From a phage, in the sequence record NC_111505.1: 64,000 bases of DNA, one strand, 5' to 3'. This document shows positions 34,939 to 41,149 of the stretch, piece by piece. Below the pieces are notes generated by a model that was given only the letters and a program-made list of their open reading frames with translations, was not told where the DNA came from and searched no databases. Position 1 is the stretch's first letter, and each line of letters begins with the position of its first letter. The translations under genes and the position numbers were made by a program.

Positions 34939-35329
34939 TTGCTGCTTCTCCTGCATTCATCAGATCTGCCATAGCGTCACCCACGAATAGGACAACCACG
35001 TCGTTGACAGCGTCAGCATCATCTTTATTAATGTTGCTGAATTTGGGGCACACTGCAATGACCATATATACCCCGTTGCCCAACTGAACAGTGCGTGTAG
35101 TGCACATCAGTGTGGTGTTTGTGCCTTCTTTAAAGGCAAATCCTTGCAGACGTTCTTCCAGAGAGTCGCCTGTTGATTTCAACAAGGCAAGATCGCCCAA
35201 TGCGTAGGTAGTGTCCTCATAGGTCAGTCCAGAGGTCAGTGTTGCCTTTCCATCAGAAACTATAATAACCCCATCGGCACCGTCAAGCTCGGAGGCTTCA
35301 AAGATATTGATATCCCAAATGTTTTTCAT
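34928..35329 (-). CDS. hypothetical protein (133 aa)
   Basis: Track start is GTG 35332; ATG 35329; ATGA overlap with upstream gene. Confidence 0.55.
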   Translation of the reverse strand: MKNIWDINIFEASELDGADGVIIVSDGKATLTSGLTYEDTTYALGDLALLKSTGDSLEERLQGFAFKEGTNTTLMCTTRTVQLGNGVYMVIAVCPKFSNINKDDADAVNDVVVLFVGDAMADLMNAGEAANED

Positions 35330-35601
35330 CACTCTGCCTCATCATCTAAGTAATCATCAAGAGAGGTGAAGATTTCACCGAAGTATTCTAAGATTTCTAG
35401 CTCGCGTGTGGTGCAGCAAACATAATCTCCCTGGTCGTCCTTGATAGTAGCCTCTTTACCCAGCACATCCACTTCAAATTCGTCGTTCAACAGGACGGCC
35501 CCTGTGTAAACTTTGTCAGCTGTGCAGTCCCGAAAAGCAGAGTCCTTTTCCAGATAGTCTGGCTTAACCTTGGCTTTAATTCGTTGATATTGTTTGGTCA
35601 T
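35329..35601 (-). CDS. small Cys-containing protein, RDCT...KDDxGD paralog (with 35665-35919)
   Basis: Track start is TTG 35661; ATG 35601 with AAAGGGGA SD aligns with the start of the paralog. Confidence 0.5.
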   Translation of the reverse strand: MTKQYQRIKAKVKPDYLEKDSAFRDCTADKVYTGAVLLNDEFEVDVLGKEATIKDDQGDYVCCTTRELEILEYFGEIFTSLDDYLDDEAE

Positions 35602-35664
35602 TGCTGTGGTCCCCTTTCGTTTTGATAGGGCCATTATATTAGGCCCCATCACTGTTGTCAAGTA

Positions 35665-35919
35665 TTAATGTTCAGGTTTTACAAAAACTACTTCATTAAC
35701 AGTGCACCAGACAGAGTCTCCTTCATCATCTTTAAAGGTAAGGCACTGGGCTGAGTTTTCCAGCTCATCAATCTCTTCTTGTGATAAAGGGGCCCCTTCT
35801 TCCAGAAGGGCTTTTACCAGAGGGTTCTCACAAAACTCTGCTTCATAAATTGCACCGACTGTGCAATCCCTCAAAGCCCGGTCATTTGCAACACATTCTG
35901 GCTTCAAAGTAATTTTCAT
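35665..35919 (-). CDS. small Cys-containing protein, RDCT...KDDEGD paralog
   Basis: ATG with TAAGGAGA SD. Confidence 0.6.
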   Translation of the reverse strand: MKITLKPECVANDRALRDCTVGAIYEAEFCENPLVKALLEEGAPLSQEEIDELENSAQCLTFKDDEGDSVWCTVNEVVFVKPEH

Positions 35920-35995
35920 CTTGGCAGTCTCCTTAGTTATTTAAAAATCAACGCTCTGTTTGTGTGAAGCATCTTATACCTAATCTTACTTCTTG

Positions 35996-36367
35996 TCAAT
36001 GACTATTTTCAATCATCCACACAGGGTCTAGGTAAATTTGTTGGCGTTTTGCCCAATGACAAACTTCATTGTACATCTGAATCTCTTTGTCCGTCAGTTC
36101 ACGAATAGGCTCATCTATACCCTCATTTTTGTGGTAATCCCATTCGGCATCGATTTCCCACAACCATGACTTACGATCTTCACGTTTACGCACACAGAAG
36201 TCCCCAGGACGGCCTGCCAGTGCATTTAAGAACTCGTTCTCCGCTCGCTCCTGGAGAATACTAAGGAGCAAAACGTTGGAGCATGACCGCAAAATATGCT
36301 TCAGCTCACAATCATCGATCTCAACTTCAATACGTTGCTTGACTGTGTGGGTACCTTTTACTAACAT
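35996..36367 (-). CDS. hypothetical protein (123 aa)
   Basis: Track start is TTG 36394; ATG 36367 with AGAGGAGG SD. Confidence 0.5.
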   Translation of the reverse strand: MLVKGTHTVKQRIEVEIDDCELKHILRSCSNVLLLSILQERAENEFLNALAGRPGDFCVRKREDRKSWLWEIDAEWDYHKNEGIDEPIRELTDKEIQMYNEVCHWAKRQQIYLDPVWMIENSH

Positions 36368-36377
36368 TCTGCCTCCT

Positions 36378-36572
36378 CTAGACAAACTCTGCAAGGGTTG
36401 TGTTGTTCACTGCACCGCAGTAGATGGAATACCCCAACCCATTATGGTGCAGAAACCACGGCACACCTTGGTCATCCTTCACGTATACATCTCCATTTTC
36501 CGTAAAGGGCCAATACTCCTCTCCGAGGGTAAAATACCTACTCATACCTTCAGCCAGATACTTTACTTTCAT
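36378..36572 (-). CDS. small protein, KDDxGxxWF paralog family
   Basis: ATG with GAAGAGGA SD; ...VKDDQGVPWFLHHNGLGYSIYCG. Confidence 0.6.
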   Translation of the reverse strand: MKVKYLAEGMSRYFTLGEEYWPFTENGDVYVKDDQGVPWFLHHNGLGYSIYCGAVNNTTLAEFV

Positions 36573-36796
36573 AGATCCTCTTCAACAGCTACAAACTTGG
36601 CAAGTAGGGTGGTTCCATAGATATGATACTCACCATTTGCCAGATGGGAGATAAACCAGGCAACACCTTCCTCGTCTTCGATCATATTGTTCCTGCGATC
36701 CTTATCGTAGTAAACCTTGTAGACCTTACCTTCTTCAAAGAATGACAGGTCTGTCATCTTTTCTTCTACAAACGTCGCTTTAACCAAAGTTGTCAT
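36569..36796 (-). CDS. small protein, KDDxGxxWF paralog family
   Basis: ATG with AAGGAGG SD; ...EDEEGVAWFISHLANGEYHIYG. Confidence 0.6.
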   Translation of the reverse strand: MTTLVKATFVEEKMTDLSFFEEGKVYKVYYDKDRRNNMIEDEEGVAWFISHLANGEYHIYGTTLLAKFVAVEEDL

Positions 36797-37077
36797 TGAT
36801 CTGCCTCCTTCTTGTTGAGCCGGAACACTGCAATAATAGCATTTCCAAGATGCAGTGTCAAATCATTTCCCAGATACCATAACATTCCACGGTCATCTTT
36901 AATGAAAGGGTAACAATCCGGTGCCTTCCAGACATTATACACTTTGCCGACCTGAAAGAAATCAGGCCCTGTTGGAATTTTAGTACCTGGCCACACTTGA
37001 GACACCTGAACGCACTCTACCTGCATAATAACAGGAATAGTCATGGAGGTAAATGTTTTTGTCGGTTCTACTACCAT
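36793..37077 (-). CDS. small protein, KDDxGxxWY paralog family
   Basis: Track start is GTG 37167; ATG 37077 with GAGAGGAGA SD; ...IKDDRGMLWYLGNDLT. Confidence 0.5.
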   Translation of the reverse strand: MVVEPTKTFTSMTIPVIMQVECVQVSQVWPGTKIPTGPDFFQVGKVYNVWKAPDCYPFIKDDRGMLWYLGNDLTLHLGNAIIAVFRLNKKEADQ

Positions 37078-37126
37078 AAAAGTCTCCTCTCTATCTAACA
37101 ACACTTCCGTGTGTTGATAGTTTACA

Positions 37127-37480
37127 TTAGTGACAATCGCCCCAGTTACGACCACACAAGTATTCACCTGTGATCTGGAACGGAACGCCCATCATTTTAG
37201 AAGCTTGCCAGAAGCAATGCACCACCATTTCACCCACAGGGCTCCAGATAAGTTCAAGCTTTCCGTCATCGTTCAGAATAGGATCGTACACCGTGTTTCC
37301 GTCTCTGTCAACCACTTCGTTTCCGTTCTCATCCTTGCGTGCCTTTTTGTACTTATGACCGTCAAACACATGAAGTTTGGCCTCCTGTTCTGCCTTAAAT
37401 GCTTCCAGTTCTTCAATTGTGTCGAAGGTGTACACAGTCTTATACTTAGGCGTGTCAGGGACTTGAAGTTGGTACTCATC
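37127..37480 (-). CDS. DNA polymerase I-family (family A), 3' exon (motif C HDE to C-terminal ...NWGDCH)
   Basis: Frame begins DEYQLQ... directly after the intron's terminal G; ends with a family-A-like C-terminus (...NWGDCH); no independent SD or ATG (track 'M' is TTG). Confidence 0.6.
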   Translation of the reverse strand, partial: DEYQLQVPDTPKYKTVYTFDTIEELEAFKAEQEAKLHVFDGHKYKKARKDENGNEVVDRDGNTVYDPILNDDGKLELIWSPVGEMVVHCFWQASKMMGVPFQITGEYLCGRNWGDCH

Positions 37481-37756
37481 CAATAGTTCAGGTAGGTCGT
37501 TAAGCTACCCCGCACCATTACGTGCATAGCCATACGTTTTCACGTAGGATCGGACCATCTCATATTCCTATGATAAGCAACCACAGGAATCCTCCCATTT
37601 CGACCGCACTTGCTGGTCTACTTCCTTTCGGAATGGCCTCTGAGCGTTCGCTCTTTTGAGCGCTTCGTTGCGGATTACCTTGCCATAAGGTTTAGGCTTC
37701 CCGCAGTTAAAGAGGTTATTCGACATAGATTACTCTATGAAGCCACAATGTTATTT
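37481..37756 (-). mobile_element. ORF-less group I intron (IA2-like) interrupting the DNA polymerase gene at motif C
   Basis: 276 nt between pol ORF stop and 3' exon; 5' exon ends ...CAU (U), intron ends ...CUAUUG (G); GUGG near intron 5' end can pair with exon CCAU (P1, G-U at splice site); 3' part ...GGGGUAGCUUAACGACCUACCUGAACUAUUG resembles the T4 td intron 3' end as I recall it. Confidence 0.65.
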
Positions 37757-40700
37757 ATGGTAATAAATAATACGACGAACACCTTCATCGTACCACCCAC
37801 GCTTCACCATTTGGTGGTGCATGAGTATCCCAACTAAGTCACACAACGATGCACCACCATTTTGTTGGTATGCATTAAGTAAAGAGTGTTTAGATCGAGT
37901 CCAGATGGCATGACCATCAAAAGAGTAGATAAACTTCTTACCTGTTGCTTCCCAGAATTTCTCCAGATCCTCTTTGCGCCCCTTAAGACCAGGGTTGGCA
38001 TCCCAAAGCGCATCGATTACCTTTTGCCCTAACTCTGGGGAGATATCCAGCATGTCTGCAACTTTATCTTTTTGTGCCCCGTACATAACACCGTACGTGA
38101 CAGGCTTACCATCGTTACGGGAAATCTCCTTGCCTGCTACAGAAGAGTAAGCTTTGGCGTTATTACAGTTACCGCACACTGCCACTTTACCATTCCTTCT
38201 CACAATGATTGCTCCAGAAGGGACGGTAACGCAATAAACCAAAGAACCACTCACCTCGACAGACTCTTTAGATAGTGTCAGCAACCCTGCTCTCTGTTTG
38301 CTACCAATCGTGATTCTGTGCTGTACGGAACGACCTTTTTTGTGAATCGCCACCGTATTATTCCGTAAACCACACTGAGTAGCCAGCGCAGACACAACCT
38401 CTACAGATTTCTTCCTGCACTCGGCCTGAGAGTAGTAGGCAACTTTTCCACCTTCGGAAGATACCCACCCGTCCCAGTTAGATAAAGAAGCTATAAACAG
38501 GTTTTTAGATTCTTTATCAAGGTCCATCAGGTTGTAGGTGAAATCCTTATTGCTGTCCAAAAACTCAAATACCCAGGACGGAACGTGGAATTGGAACCTT
38601 CTCGCCAGTAAGCCCCCTTTTGTGGTTTTCCCGCCCTGCTCTACATAACTAAGGCTTAGAGCAGAAAAAGTATCTAAAAGCGTTGCAACTTTTCTGCCCT
38701 TCCCGACCTGAATCCTGCACACGATGCTGCCGTCCTTATTTGTATGCAAGTGTCCATCATCGTGAATAGCAATAAGCAAATTAATCTGGGCAGGAGATAA
38801 GGTTGTATTCCCATAAAACTCTGCCGCATGGATAAACCTTCTTCCTGAATTAGACCCTTTACCTGCTTTCAGGTCTTTTGCCAAATCTTCAAACAATTTA
38901 TTGCTTCTGTGATCCACGGTCAGCATCCTGTGTTGATCTGTAACCATAAAATCCACACCGCTGTTGTGGAAATGATACATATCCCCACAATAACCACGCT
39001 TAACGTAATTTAATGGTGTAACAAGGTTCATCGACGAGGTGTTGTGATCGTACTGGAACACTTGTGTTCCCGGATCAAGATCTTCAAACCTCACCCACCC
39101 TTTCTCCGTGAGAATTTGTGTATCTCCTGAATAACAGTGTGCATCGCCGTTACTTACAACATCATAATACAAGCCGTTGTCGAACTCAAAGGCACCCCAA
39201 GCCCCGATAAGCTGCTCTAAGTTGGACCCGTCAATACCGATCTCAAAGTATCCTGGAGGAACGCCCCACAGACTACGCATCTCTTTACCCATAACCACTT
39301 TAGGAGATGGTTTAGGCATGTTTGCACAAATACTGTGTTTCTGTCTGGAAGTGTTTGTCAATCCAGAACTTTTAGCAGGAAGCTTGTGGTCAATCTTCAG
39401 ACGTGGATGATTAAGAAGACCAGTATCAACCTTATCCTCCTTGATTGGATCAAGTACCGATCTACGGTTTCGCAAGGATAACCACAAGACGATATCTTTA
39501 GCCATCTCTCCGTTCAACTTTTCAAGATTCGGACATAGGTGTCCAAACGTATCTTTCAGTTGCGGAGAAGTAATAAGCGCTCTGGCTTTTCTACGTATCT
39601 TCCCAAACACTTCCTTTTTAATCCTTTCTGAGTTAGGGAAGCTTCGGAACTTGTGCACGGTTGTCTGAAACTTAGCATCAGTTTTGTTCCAGAAGTTGAT
39701 AATTAGGTCACAATACTCTGACTCTAAAAGCTCGTCCATATATGCATATACTCGTGCATCAACATCAGCATCAGGCAGAGCTTTCTTCTTGCTGTCCTTG
39801 GTTACATCTTTAGTTCTCCACATTGTTGGGAGCCAACCAGCGCTGATCAAATATCGCTTAATATCGTCCTGGTTGCTGATCTTCATAGGTATCTTGCAGT
39901 CAGGCATCCGCTTCTGCTGCAGATCACTTATTGCCTGATCCATTAGTTCTTTAGGTAAAGGATGTGGTGTCGAGGTACCTTTAATATACCCCCTTAAGAA
40001 ATCAGCCATCTTATCGGGGTCTTTGCAGCCCATCTCTTCACACCATTTTATCCCCATTTTGCTGACATCTCCTGTGGAGGTAAAGGCTCGCTTAGGTGGG
40101 GCTTTGAATTCTAAAGCACTCATGTCCACAGGATAGCCAAGCTTGTCTTTTAACCATTTCCAACCGTTATTAGAGATTGTCCCATCTTGGTTAAACGGCT
40201 TTTCAGGGAACTTAGGCCGCTGAGACATTGATAGCTCTTTTAGAGGAAGTTGTGGTTCAACACGATCAGCGATCTCTTTCATCCACGCATCGCAGCGGTC
40301 ACGTAAAGCAATAGCCCCATCTATGTCGAAATACACACCCTGTCGAGCCTGCAGCTCCATCAGGAAATGCTGCAGCATGCCTCGGCGTAATGCATTCTTC
40401 CAGGTGATCTTCTTGAAGCCTTTCGGCTTCTCTTTGGCAGGATCGTACATAAAGTTCTGCATGTCAGATTTGCCGTAGAATACACCTTTTGATTCTGCTA
40501 CCAACTCCTTCCAGAGCAACTCCTGGATGATAACGTCCTCGAACACACGATCCACATACTTCCACAGCGGAAGCTCACGCCAGTCATCGATTTGAACTTT
40601 CTGGTTACCAAGGGCATAGCCCCATGCCATAAGGCCATGAGGCCCAACAGGTTGCATTTTCTTGGTAACTGGATTGAATACTGCGTCCGGACAACCTTTT

Positions 40701-41149
40701 GGCAAAGGGCGGTCAGGCCACAAGATTCGACTCATCGCCAACGTATCAAATAGATTAACTTGGTGGTCGTTGATAGTCCCCATGCATTTAGGATCACGGA
40801 ACATATCAAAATGAACACCGGATAATCTTTCCATCAGCATAAAGTCATAGCTGTAGCAGTTATGACAGTTCAAAGCCGTAGGTGACCAGTCTGAATTGCC
40901 TGTAAGCCAGCCTTCCAACTCTGAAAAATCTGCTATGCGAGCCTCAAAATCTTTATAAAGAGTTTTCTTTGCCAGAATAAAGTTCTTAGCCTTTTCTACA
41001 TCCTCTTCAGAGTAGTGTGTGCGGTCATTTAGAGGAAGGAACAGCATAAAACGGTTCTTATTCAGCTCTTTAAACAAACCGCAGTGATAATAAAGATCTG
41101 GATCTTCCAAAAGCCCGGAGGCCTCCAAGTCGAACGACCACATGCTCAT
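37757..41149 (-). CDS. DNA polymerase I-family (family A), 5' exon including 3'-5' exonuclease domain and an in-frame intein
   Basis: FDLEASGL (Exo I), motif A ...IGIDGSNLEQLI..., motif B ...KPVTYGVMYGAQ...; ATG 41149 with AGGAGA SD; ORF stops (...IIYYHK*) exactly where motif C is expected. Confidence 0.8.
38168..39136 (-). mobile_element. Intein (323 aa) with LAGLIDADG-like homing endonuclease domain, between pol motifs A and B
   Basis: Insert begins CYSGDTQIL (Hint block A), contains TDQH (block B), LLIAIHDDG and FIASLSNWDG (dodecapeptide-like), ends ...VAVCGN followed by +1 Cys; motif A and B are about 370 aa apart instead of about 45. Confidence 0.7.

Follow-up and report, generated by a model that had tools for sequence, protein, structure and literature searches.

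A putative intein of LAGLIDADG type and a group I intron in the family A DNA polymerase gene of a Vequintavirus

Architecture of the polymerase locus

We analysed a stretch of 64,000 nucleotides of phage DNA (sequence record NC_111505.1; hereafter the window), focusing on a T7-like family A DNA polymerase gene on its minus strand, in which an insert of 323 codons with the features of an intein separates polymerase motif A from motif B. A megablast search with the region matched 133 phage records, the best six at 93-97% identity, and assigns the source phage to Vequintavirus, i.e. to the rV5-like phages of E. coli. The gene comprises the following parts (a slash marks a junction).

37127-41149, minus strand: complete family A DNA polymerase gene, consisting of exon 1 (with the intein), a group I intron and exon 2
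39137-41149, minus strand: N-extein, polymerase residues 1-671, including ...GIDGSNLE (motif A) and ending in ...NGDAH
38168-39136, minus strand: putative intein of 323 residues, Cys1 to Asn323, residues 672-994 of the open reading frame (ORF)
38165-38167, minus strand: +1 Cys codon (TGT), first residue of the C-extein and counterpart of T7 Thr507; Gln (CAA) in the intein-less rV5 allele
37757-38164, minus strand: remaining C-extein of exon 1, with motif B (RNDGKPVTYGVMYGA) inside and ...IIYYH at its end
37481-37756, minus strand: group I intron of 276 nt without an ORF, between the His and the Asp of motif C (YYH/DEYQLQV)
37127-37480, minus strand: polymerase exon 2, 117 residues plus stop codon, starting with DEYQLQV (motif C)

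The insert is contained in a minus-strand ORF of 1132 amino acids (37751-41149). The end of this ORF (...YYHK and a stop codon) is not the end of the polymerase: a group I intron begins after His1131, and the 117-residue exon 2 behind it contributes the Asp-Glu of motif C. The first-pass annotation had put the size of an unspliced polymerase at about 1130 residues, which is too short, since the intron and exon 2 follow the ORF; the predicted precursor has 1248 residues, and in silico joining gives a mature enzyme of 925 residues after RNA and protein splicing.

After in silico removal of the insert and the intron, the protein can be aligned continuously with T7 DNA polymerase (E 1.6e-13), and the aligned region spans motif A (GIDGSNLE versus GIDASGLE in T7), the segment NGDAH-C versus NGDIH-T, motif B (RNDGKPVTYGVMYGA versus RDNAKTFIYGFLYGA) and motif C (YYHDEYQL versus WVHDEIQV). 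From this continuity, the insertion point lies between the counterparts of T7 His506, which corresponds to the last N-extein residue, and T7 Thr507, and the alignment confirms the pairing of the +1 Cys with the Thr after GDIH that had been proposed from the sequence at first reading.

Six GenBank records carry the insert, and they label the 1132-residue ORF either 'DNA polymerase' or 'hypothetical protein'. The intein, the intron and the second exon are annotated in none of these six records, so that the protein predicted in GenBank is wrong at both ends of the maturation pathway.

Identification of the insert as an intein

The junctions of the insert read ...NGDAH/CYSGDTQIL...VAVCGN/CNNAKAY..., and its delimitation is based on a comparison with rV5, on family alignments, on an AlphaFold2 model and on Foldseek searches. 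The polymerase of rV5 is 98% identical and lacks exactly these 323 residues (NGDAH/QNNAEAY versus NGDAH/intein/CNNAKAY), and the DNA alignment to rV5 contains one single gap of 969 nt at the insert; the coordinates that had been proposed for an intein, 38168-39136 or residues 672-994, are thus exact. The insert occurs in only six phage genomes (JEP1, Mangalyan, 241Ecol014PP, NHEP1, EPFV3-03/2025 and VB-EcoM-WM), and more than 100 close relatives among the 133 related phage records are without it. The GC content does not distinguish the intein from its host gene (0.446 vs 0.450). The motifs on which the first reading was based, namely CYSGDTQIL, a TxxH (here TDQH), LLIAIHDDG, FIASLSNWDG and a terminal GN followed by Cys, are all present, and they can be assigned to the following predicted parts of the intein.

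38822-39136, minus strand: N-terminal Hint splicing subdomain, residues 1-105 (boundary approximate), based on Hint_2, TIGR01445 and the profile match to AceL NrdHF (PDB 6zgq)
39134-39136, minus strand: Cys1 of block A (CYSGDTQIL, intein residues 1-9)
38930-38941, minus strand: block B, T66-D-Q-H69 (TDQH), with T66 and H69 invariant in family alignments
38282-38821, minus strand: putative two-motif, single-chain LAGLIDADG homing endonuclease domain, residues about 106-285, based on the secondary structure of the AlphaFold2 model, on Foldseek and on selection (see below)
38753-38779, minus strand: LAGLIDADG motif 1, LLIAIHDDG, residues 120-128, with the putative catalytic Asp127 at the C-terminal end of helix 115-127
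38468-38497, minus strand: LAGLIDADG motif 2, FIASLSNWDG, residues 214-223, with the putative catalytic Asp222 just after helix 208-221
38168-38281, minus strand: C-terminal Hint subdomain, residues 286-323, with blocks F and G
38213-38239, minus strand: block F, VYC(302)VTVPSG, with Cys at position F4 according to family alignments

Residues 1-323 were matched by tblastn at 21-31% identity within unrelated phage proteins. The hosts of full-length homologues include NAMPT (nicotinamide phosphoribosyltransferase), NrdA and NrdB (the alpha and beta subunits of ribonucleotide reductase, RNR), PhoH and ThyX (thymidylate synthase), as well as RtcB, primase/helicase, DNA methylase and a mycobacteriophage metallophosphoesterase/RDF, which amounts to more than 10 unrelated proteins overall. 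An alignment of 15 homologues shows invariant Cys1, block B His, Asp of the second dodecapeptide, block F Cys and terminal Gly-Asn, and the +1 residue is always Cys, Ser or Thr. When the intein sequence was used as a single query in a homology search, no match scored among 1291 candidates; a 15-sequence alignment as query gave 60 matches, down to E 1e-78, and the near-identical copies from the six carrier phages were absent from both lists. At E<=1e-30, 12,587 cluster representatives match the family, many of them with several copies per protein, and the window intein is an ordinary member of this very large, already recognised phage intein family. The matches in PHROGs are confined to families named for intein-containing hosts (PhoH, RNR, ThyX), which is evidence of promiscuity and not of function.

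Among the matches in the representative library, many of those numbered P0061-P0203 are very long (2000-3700 aa) multi-intein proteins of unknown origin with 2-10 separate profile matches, and P0050 is RNA polymerase subunit 2 of a giant virus (Satyrvirus) that contains a member of the family.

The AlphaFold2 model, which was built from 35 input sequences, has a predicted local distance difference test (pLDDT) value of 92.2 and a predicted template modelling (pTM) score of 0.90. It contains two alpha-beta-beta-alpha-beta-beta units, in which the dodecapeptide-like motifs form the helices 115-127 and 208-221, each with Asp-Gly at its end. In family alignments, Asp127 is at least 90% conserved and Gly128 is invariant, and Asp222 is invariant in all of them. 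The best Foldseek matches in the PDB are endonuclease-containing inteins (TliVMA, E 2.8e-14; PI-SceI, E 1.7e-13; then PhoVMA and PI-PkoII), followed by the stand-alone LAGLIDADG enzymes I-DmoI, I-SceI and I-Tsp061I together with WhiA (E 1e-6 to 1e-4), and also by the mini-intein AceL NrdHF. In a comparison of the family profile with solved structures, AceL NrdHF (6zgq) is reached at E 3.3e-11, the next best being Spl DnaX (E 6.7e-5), and I-Tsp061I (2dch) follows at E 0.018. The LAGLIDADG-like endonuclease that had been suggested from the two motifs is borne out by the model, which matches the inteins PI-SceI, TliVMA and PI-PkoII as well as I-DmoI and I-SceI, and the endonuclease looks functional.

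Taken together, the distribution among close relatives, the presence in unrelated proteins and the modelled fold are decisive for the identity of the insert, for which curated models alone are insufficient. We conclude with high confidence that nucleotides 38168-39136 encode a bona fide intein, which by sequence comparison and modelling would be splicing-competent and is probably still mobile, and which consists of a Hint domain interrupted by a two-motif LAGLIDADG endonuclease, located in the fingers/active-site segment of a T7-like family A polymerase, between its His506 and Thr507 equivalents.

Several observations weigh against this conclusion. The Pfam Hint_2 match (E 1e-4) reaches 23 bits and stays below the cut-off of 28.4, TIGR01445 (NCBIfam) matches at E 0.015, likewise below its cut-off, and no Pfam LAGLIDADG model matches the window intein sequence. 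Moreover, the usual helpers of splicing, Asp at F4 and the penultimate His (position G6), are replaced by Cys302 and Gly322, position G5 is Cys where most relatives have Thr or Ser, and the comparison with AceL NrdHF also records a missing block F His (PMC7891396).

A search with Pfam hidden Markov models, which the first-pass annotation had recommended as a check, thus does return Hint_2 below threshold and nothing for LAGLIDADG, and would be misleading if taken alone. LAGLIDADG_3 gives weak matches in five of the 15 relatives (best E 0.0011), and several relatives in databases carry a precomputed PF14528 annotation. A match to adenovirus penton in the curated-model search is spurious and was set aside.

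Splicing chemistry of the intein

The intein ends in block G with VAVC(321)G(322)N(323) (residues 318-323), i.e. in Gly322-Asn323 in place of a penultimate His, and position 12 of block B (B12) is Met71. We counted the residues at the active-site positions in 205 full-length relatives from 203 proteins. Cys1 and the block B His are present in all 205, Gly322 in 199, Asn323 in 198, and a Ser, Thr or Cys at +1 in 199. Position F4, which is usually Asp in class 1 inteins, is Cys in 196 of the 205 (Cys302 in the window copy), and nine relatives have kept Cys1 with Ser, Asp or Gly at F4. B12 is V, M, L or I in the family; Trp, the class 3 residue in the definition of Tori and Perler, occurs in only 3 of the 205 and does not occupy this position in the window intein. 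At G5, Thr is found in 98, Ser in 59 and Cys in 23 of the 205, and the window copy has Cys321, not the Thr of class 3.

According to these counts, a penultimate Gly is the norm for this intein family. The first-pass annotation had rightly observed the Gly, but Gly is the family rule (199/205), and a family member with it splices fast (PMC5050341). This member, the RDF intein of mycobacteriophage Bethlehem, splices to completion with its penultimate Gly and slowly as the G316H variant, and its endonuclease showed toxicity in E. coli (Kelley et al. 2016, mBio, PMC5050341); Kelley et al. classed it as class 1. The AceL NrdHF intein was found by experiment to be class 3, splicing via the block F Cys with Ala at position 1, and it has Met at B12, Cys at F4, a Thr-Gly-Asn end and neither a block F nor a penultimate His (PMC7891396).

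The absolute conservation of Cys1, together with the nine Cys1 relatives without a Cys at F4, argues that Cys1 is the working first nucleophile. Given that splicing occurs, we therefore consider it probable that it is initiated in the manner of class 1, at Cys1, and favour this over an obligatory class 3 pathway. In the latter, Cys302 at F4 would attack the N-terminal junction instead of Cys1, the resulting branched thioester at block F would pass the N-extein on to Cys+1, and Cys1 would be dispensable or a relay. Such a course, to which we assign a minor but appreciable likelihood, would fit the Cys at F4 in 196 of the 205 relatives, which is invariant in three family alignments, and the similarity to AceL NrdHF, which is the closest solved relative by profile (E 3.3e-11 vs 6.7e-5 for the next), the best mini-intein fold match (template modelling (TM) score 0.82, normalised to the target) and a proven class 3 intein with the same deviant signature (PMC7891396), represented in the window by Met71, Cys302 and Cys321-Gly-Asn. 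Against it, Cys1 occurs in 205 of 205 relatives, where AceL NrdHF has Ala1, which argues that Cys1 is used; nine relatives retain Cys1 with Ser, Asp or Gly at F4; the hallmark Trp at B12 is missing and G5 of the window copy is Cys instead of Thr; the RDF member was filed as class 1 by Kelley et al.; and the canonical class 3 intein MchDnaB1 (6rix, PMC7664689) does not appear in the matches listed for the family profile.

A combination of both routes, which we regard as unlikely, would be a hybrid path from Cys1 via the block F Cys to the +1 nucleophile, or a start at either Cys, in inteins with Cys1, a Cys at F4 and Gly-Asn. The family would then form a bridge between class 1 and class 3, and AceL NrdHF with its Ala1 would be a derivative that has lost Cys1. 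If true, this would be relevant to the argument in the literature against a direct evolution of class 3 from class 1 (PMC7664689). In this reading, the four cysteines near the active site of the window copy (Cys1, Cys302, Cys321 and Cys+1) could also render the maturation of the polymerase redox-sensitive.

Mobility and selection

The history of the intein was compared with that of its host gene by means of the synonymous divergence (dS). Between the window and VB-EcoM-WM, dS is 0.53 in the intein and 0.18 in the flanking polymerase sequence, i.e. about threefold higher in the intein, whereas between the window and EPFV3 it is 0.019 in the intein and 0.11-0.20 in the exteins, i.e. roughly 6- to 10-fold lower in the intein. 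This discordance in both directions means that the history of the intein is decoupled from that of the host gene, and it indicates an exchange of the intein independent of the polymerase gene. The ratio of nonsynonymous to synonymous divergence (omega) amounts to 0.086 over the full intein and to 0.076 within the endonuclease domain (dS 0.58), which suggests that both predicted activities, splicing and cleavage, are under purifying selection.

A further trace of mobility might be found next to the intein.

38087-38167, minus strand: recoded C-extein flank, in comparison with rV5

Of the C-extein positions that differ from rV5, 16 lie within the first 27 nt, 24 within the first 81 and 25 within the first 120, and many of the changes are synonymous, whereas the last 60 nt of the N-extein contain only 2 differences. 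In a search with the flank, the intein-less phages sampled align only to a point 27 nt short of the junction. We infer that the recoded flank is a co-conversion tract, which was left by homing from a diverged donor. On these grounds the intein is probably mobile now, or recently was.

Just six carriers are known, LAGLIDADG Pfam models are not significant on the window sequence, and motif 1 (LLIAIHDDG) deviates from the consensus, which would also fit a splicing intein with an inactive endonuclease, inherited vertically as a passenger of one Vequintavirus lineage and not currently mobile. We consider this improbable, however, given that the motif-terminal Asp is present in both motifs and conserved in the family, that the endonuclease domain has an omega of 0.076 at a dS of 0.58, that the divergence of intein and exteins is discordant both ways and unexplained by simple vertical descent, that the C-extein flank resembles a co-conversion tract, and that toxicity in E. 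coli has been recorded for the endonuclease of a family member (PMC5050341). The continuous reading frame and the naming of the whole ORF as 'DNA polymerase' by GenBank annotators could be taken to mean that the 323 residues belong to the polymerase as an accessory domain of its own, or stem from a free-standing endonuclease gene fused in frame, and are kept in the mature enzyme, but we reject this with near certainty in view of the absence of the segment from 98%-identical polymerases, the interruption of the conserved active-site segment GDIH/T, the Hint fold with all splice-junction residues and the occurrence of the same element in more than 10 unrelated proteins. That the region should be sought as a native domain in homologous polymerases had been proposed at the outset, and it is absent from the 98%-identical polymerase of rV5.

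The group I intron and neighbouring genes

The intron in motif C is recognised by the Rfam model RF00028 at 37531-37766 (64.7 bits, gathering score 50, E 1e-15). P1 is formed between CCAU of the exon and GUGG, and the 5' splice site lies after the U of the U-G pair, after the His codon at 37757. The 3' end was placed at the G at 37481 (...ATTG) on the basis of the restored frame and the HDE motif, and the predicted joining of the exons restores YYH-DEYQLQV, which aligns with VHDEIQV of T7. The same intron is found in rV5, JEP1 and 241Ecol014PP; between 37500 and 37800 there are zero mismatches to rV5, whereas the flanks differ by about 5%. In the RefSeq record of rV5 the intron is unannotated and the gene appears as two separate 'DNA polymerase' coding sequences (CDS), and the rV5 genome paper describes a polymerase of 775 residues and mentions introns in the terminase gene only (PMC3606486).

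Near the polymerase of some of the intein-carrying relatives, a gene for an HNH endonuclease is annotated, which adds a third type of selfish element to the locus; the window has no HNH gene. The HNH gene of 241Ecol014PP (locus L002, 638-1285) was considered as part of the intron, and this was rejected, as it is a free-standing gene directly downstream of exon 2. The HNH CDS of VB-EcoM-WM (L019, 2121-2169) starts about 135 nt past the exon 1 ORF, where the sequence departs from the window intron, and may be located within the intron region.

Just downstream of the polymerase, at 35329-37167 on the minus strand, five consecutive small ORFs share a (I/V/F)(K/E)D(D/E)xG..W/C motif.

36793-37167, minus strand: small ORF with the shared motif
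36569-36796, minus strand: small ORF with the shared motif
36378-36572, minus strand: small ORF with the shared motif
35665-35919, minus strand: small ORF with the shared motif
35329-35661, minus strand: small ORF with the shared motif

These ORFs resemble a tandem array of small paralogues, the function of which is unknown.

Proposed maturation and homing pathway

We propose that the group I intron in motif C would be removed first from the polymerase mRNA, yielding the exon junction ...IIYYHDEYQLQVPDTPK, and that translation would then give the 1248-residue precursor. The intein would fold and excise itself, joining ...NGDAH to CNNAK..., and the active polymerase of 925 residues would contain the ligated extein junction ...VVSNGDAHCNNAK. 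With regard to the chemistry, Cys1 would form the N-terminal thioester, the acyl group would end on Cys+1, Asn323 would cyclise without a penultimate His, as is the norm in the family, and an S-to-N shift would restore the peptide bond; Cys302 at F4 may serve as a helper in place of the usual Asp, or as a relay. Since the six carriers are on record as individually named phages, the polymerase presumably matures in them.

The excised intein would act as a site-specific endonuclease, which in a mixed infection could cut the intein-less polymerase allele at DAH/QNN, and repair off the intein-carrying genome would copy the intein together with the adjacent C-extein sequence.

Significance

Phages of the rV5 type find use in the typing of E. 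coli O157 as well as in biocontrol and therapy directed at it. The intein-plus and intein-minus polymerases, which are about 95% identical, form a clean natural allele pair in an easily grown coliphage, with which homing and co-conversion could be measured, and the same system could show whether Cys1 or the block F Cys initiates splicing in a family of more than 10,000 sequence clusters. The main value of the present analysis lies in a corrected annotation and in a convenient coliphage system for homing and for the question of class 1 versus class 3; otherwise, the locus is one more case of the well-known pattern of inteins and introns gathering in the active sites of phage replication genes.

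Comparison with known inteins

We found no published description of an intein in a Vequintavirus polymerase. The RDF group of mycobacteriophage inteins around Bethlehem gp51, which has relatives in TOPRIM, methylase and nucleotidyltransferase proteins (PMC5050341), belongs to the same sequence family as the window intein. The Euphoria RDF intein, which presumably corresponds to that of Bethlehem, the Misha28 methylase intein and the Turj99 TOPRIM intein align to the window intein over essentially its whole length. Common to this group and the window are Cys1, TxxH, a (Y/W)C in block F, the terminal GN followed by Cys or Ser, and both LAGLIDADG motifs; the group differs in that it is only 21-25% identical, resides in another host protein and phage group, and ends in (T/S)GN, with Thr at G5 where the window has Cys.

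The closest solved structure by profile is AceL NrdHF (PDB 6zgq; Chembiochem 2021, PMC7891396), which shares Met at B12, Cys at F4 and the x-Gly-Asn end with the window intein and likewise lacks both C-terminal His residues; the C-terminal motifs are FHCLSVPG...VTGN/S in AceL NrdHF and VYCVTVPSG...VCGN/C in the window. AceL NrdHF is a proven class 3 intein with Ala1, occurs naturally as two halves separated by a GIY-YIG gene and has no LAGLIDADG domain, whereas the window intein has Cys1, is contiguous and contains a LAGLIDADG domain.

A family A polymerase with an intein of the same family is known from Lactococcus phage KSY1, whose 'intein-containing DNA polymerase I' (NC_009817, gp096; L021, 274-2961) has Cys1, VYC and QGN/C. 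This intein has already been annotated as such, and unlike the window intein at its His506/Thr507 site it is inserted in motif B (AKA/C.../CNFSLLYGA); the blast match to the window intein is limited to the first 41 residues (49% identity). In a metagenomic PolA fragment (P0047), a shorter member of the family lies two codons upstream of the window site (...KPND/C...SGN/CHT...); it apparently lacks the first LAGLIDADG motif, and may have arisen by decay of a longer copy or by a separate insertion. With the window, KSY1 and P0047, the family occupies three distinct insertion points in a span of about 20 residues in the PolA fingers domain.

In terms of architecture, the window intein corresponds to PI-SceI (VMA1), TliVMA, PhoVMA and PI-PkoII, which likewise consist of a Hint domain into which a LAGLIDADG endonuclease with two motifs has been inserted (Foldseek E 1e-14 to 1e-9, TM about 0.65). 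These inteins differ from it in that they are only 10-14% identical, are larger (360-540 aa) and possess extra DNA-recognition regions, and they have the canonical penultimate His and Asp at F4.

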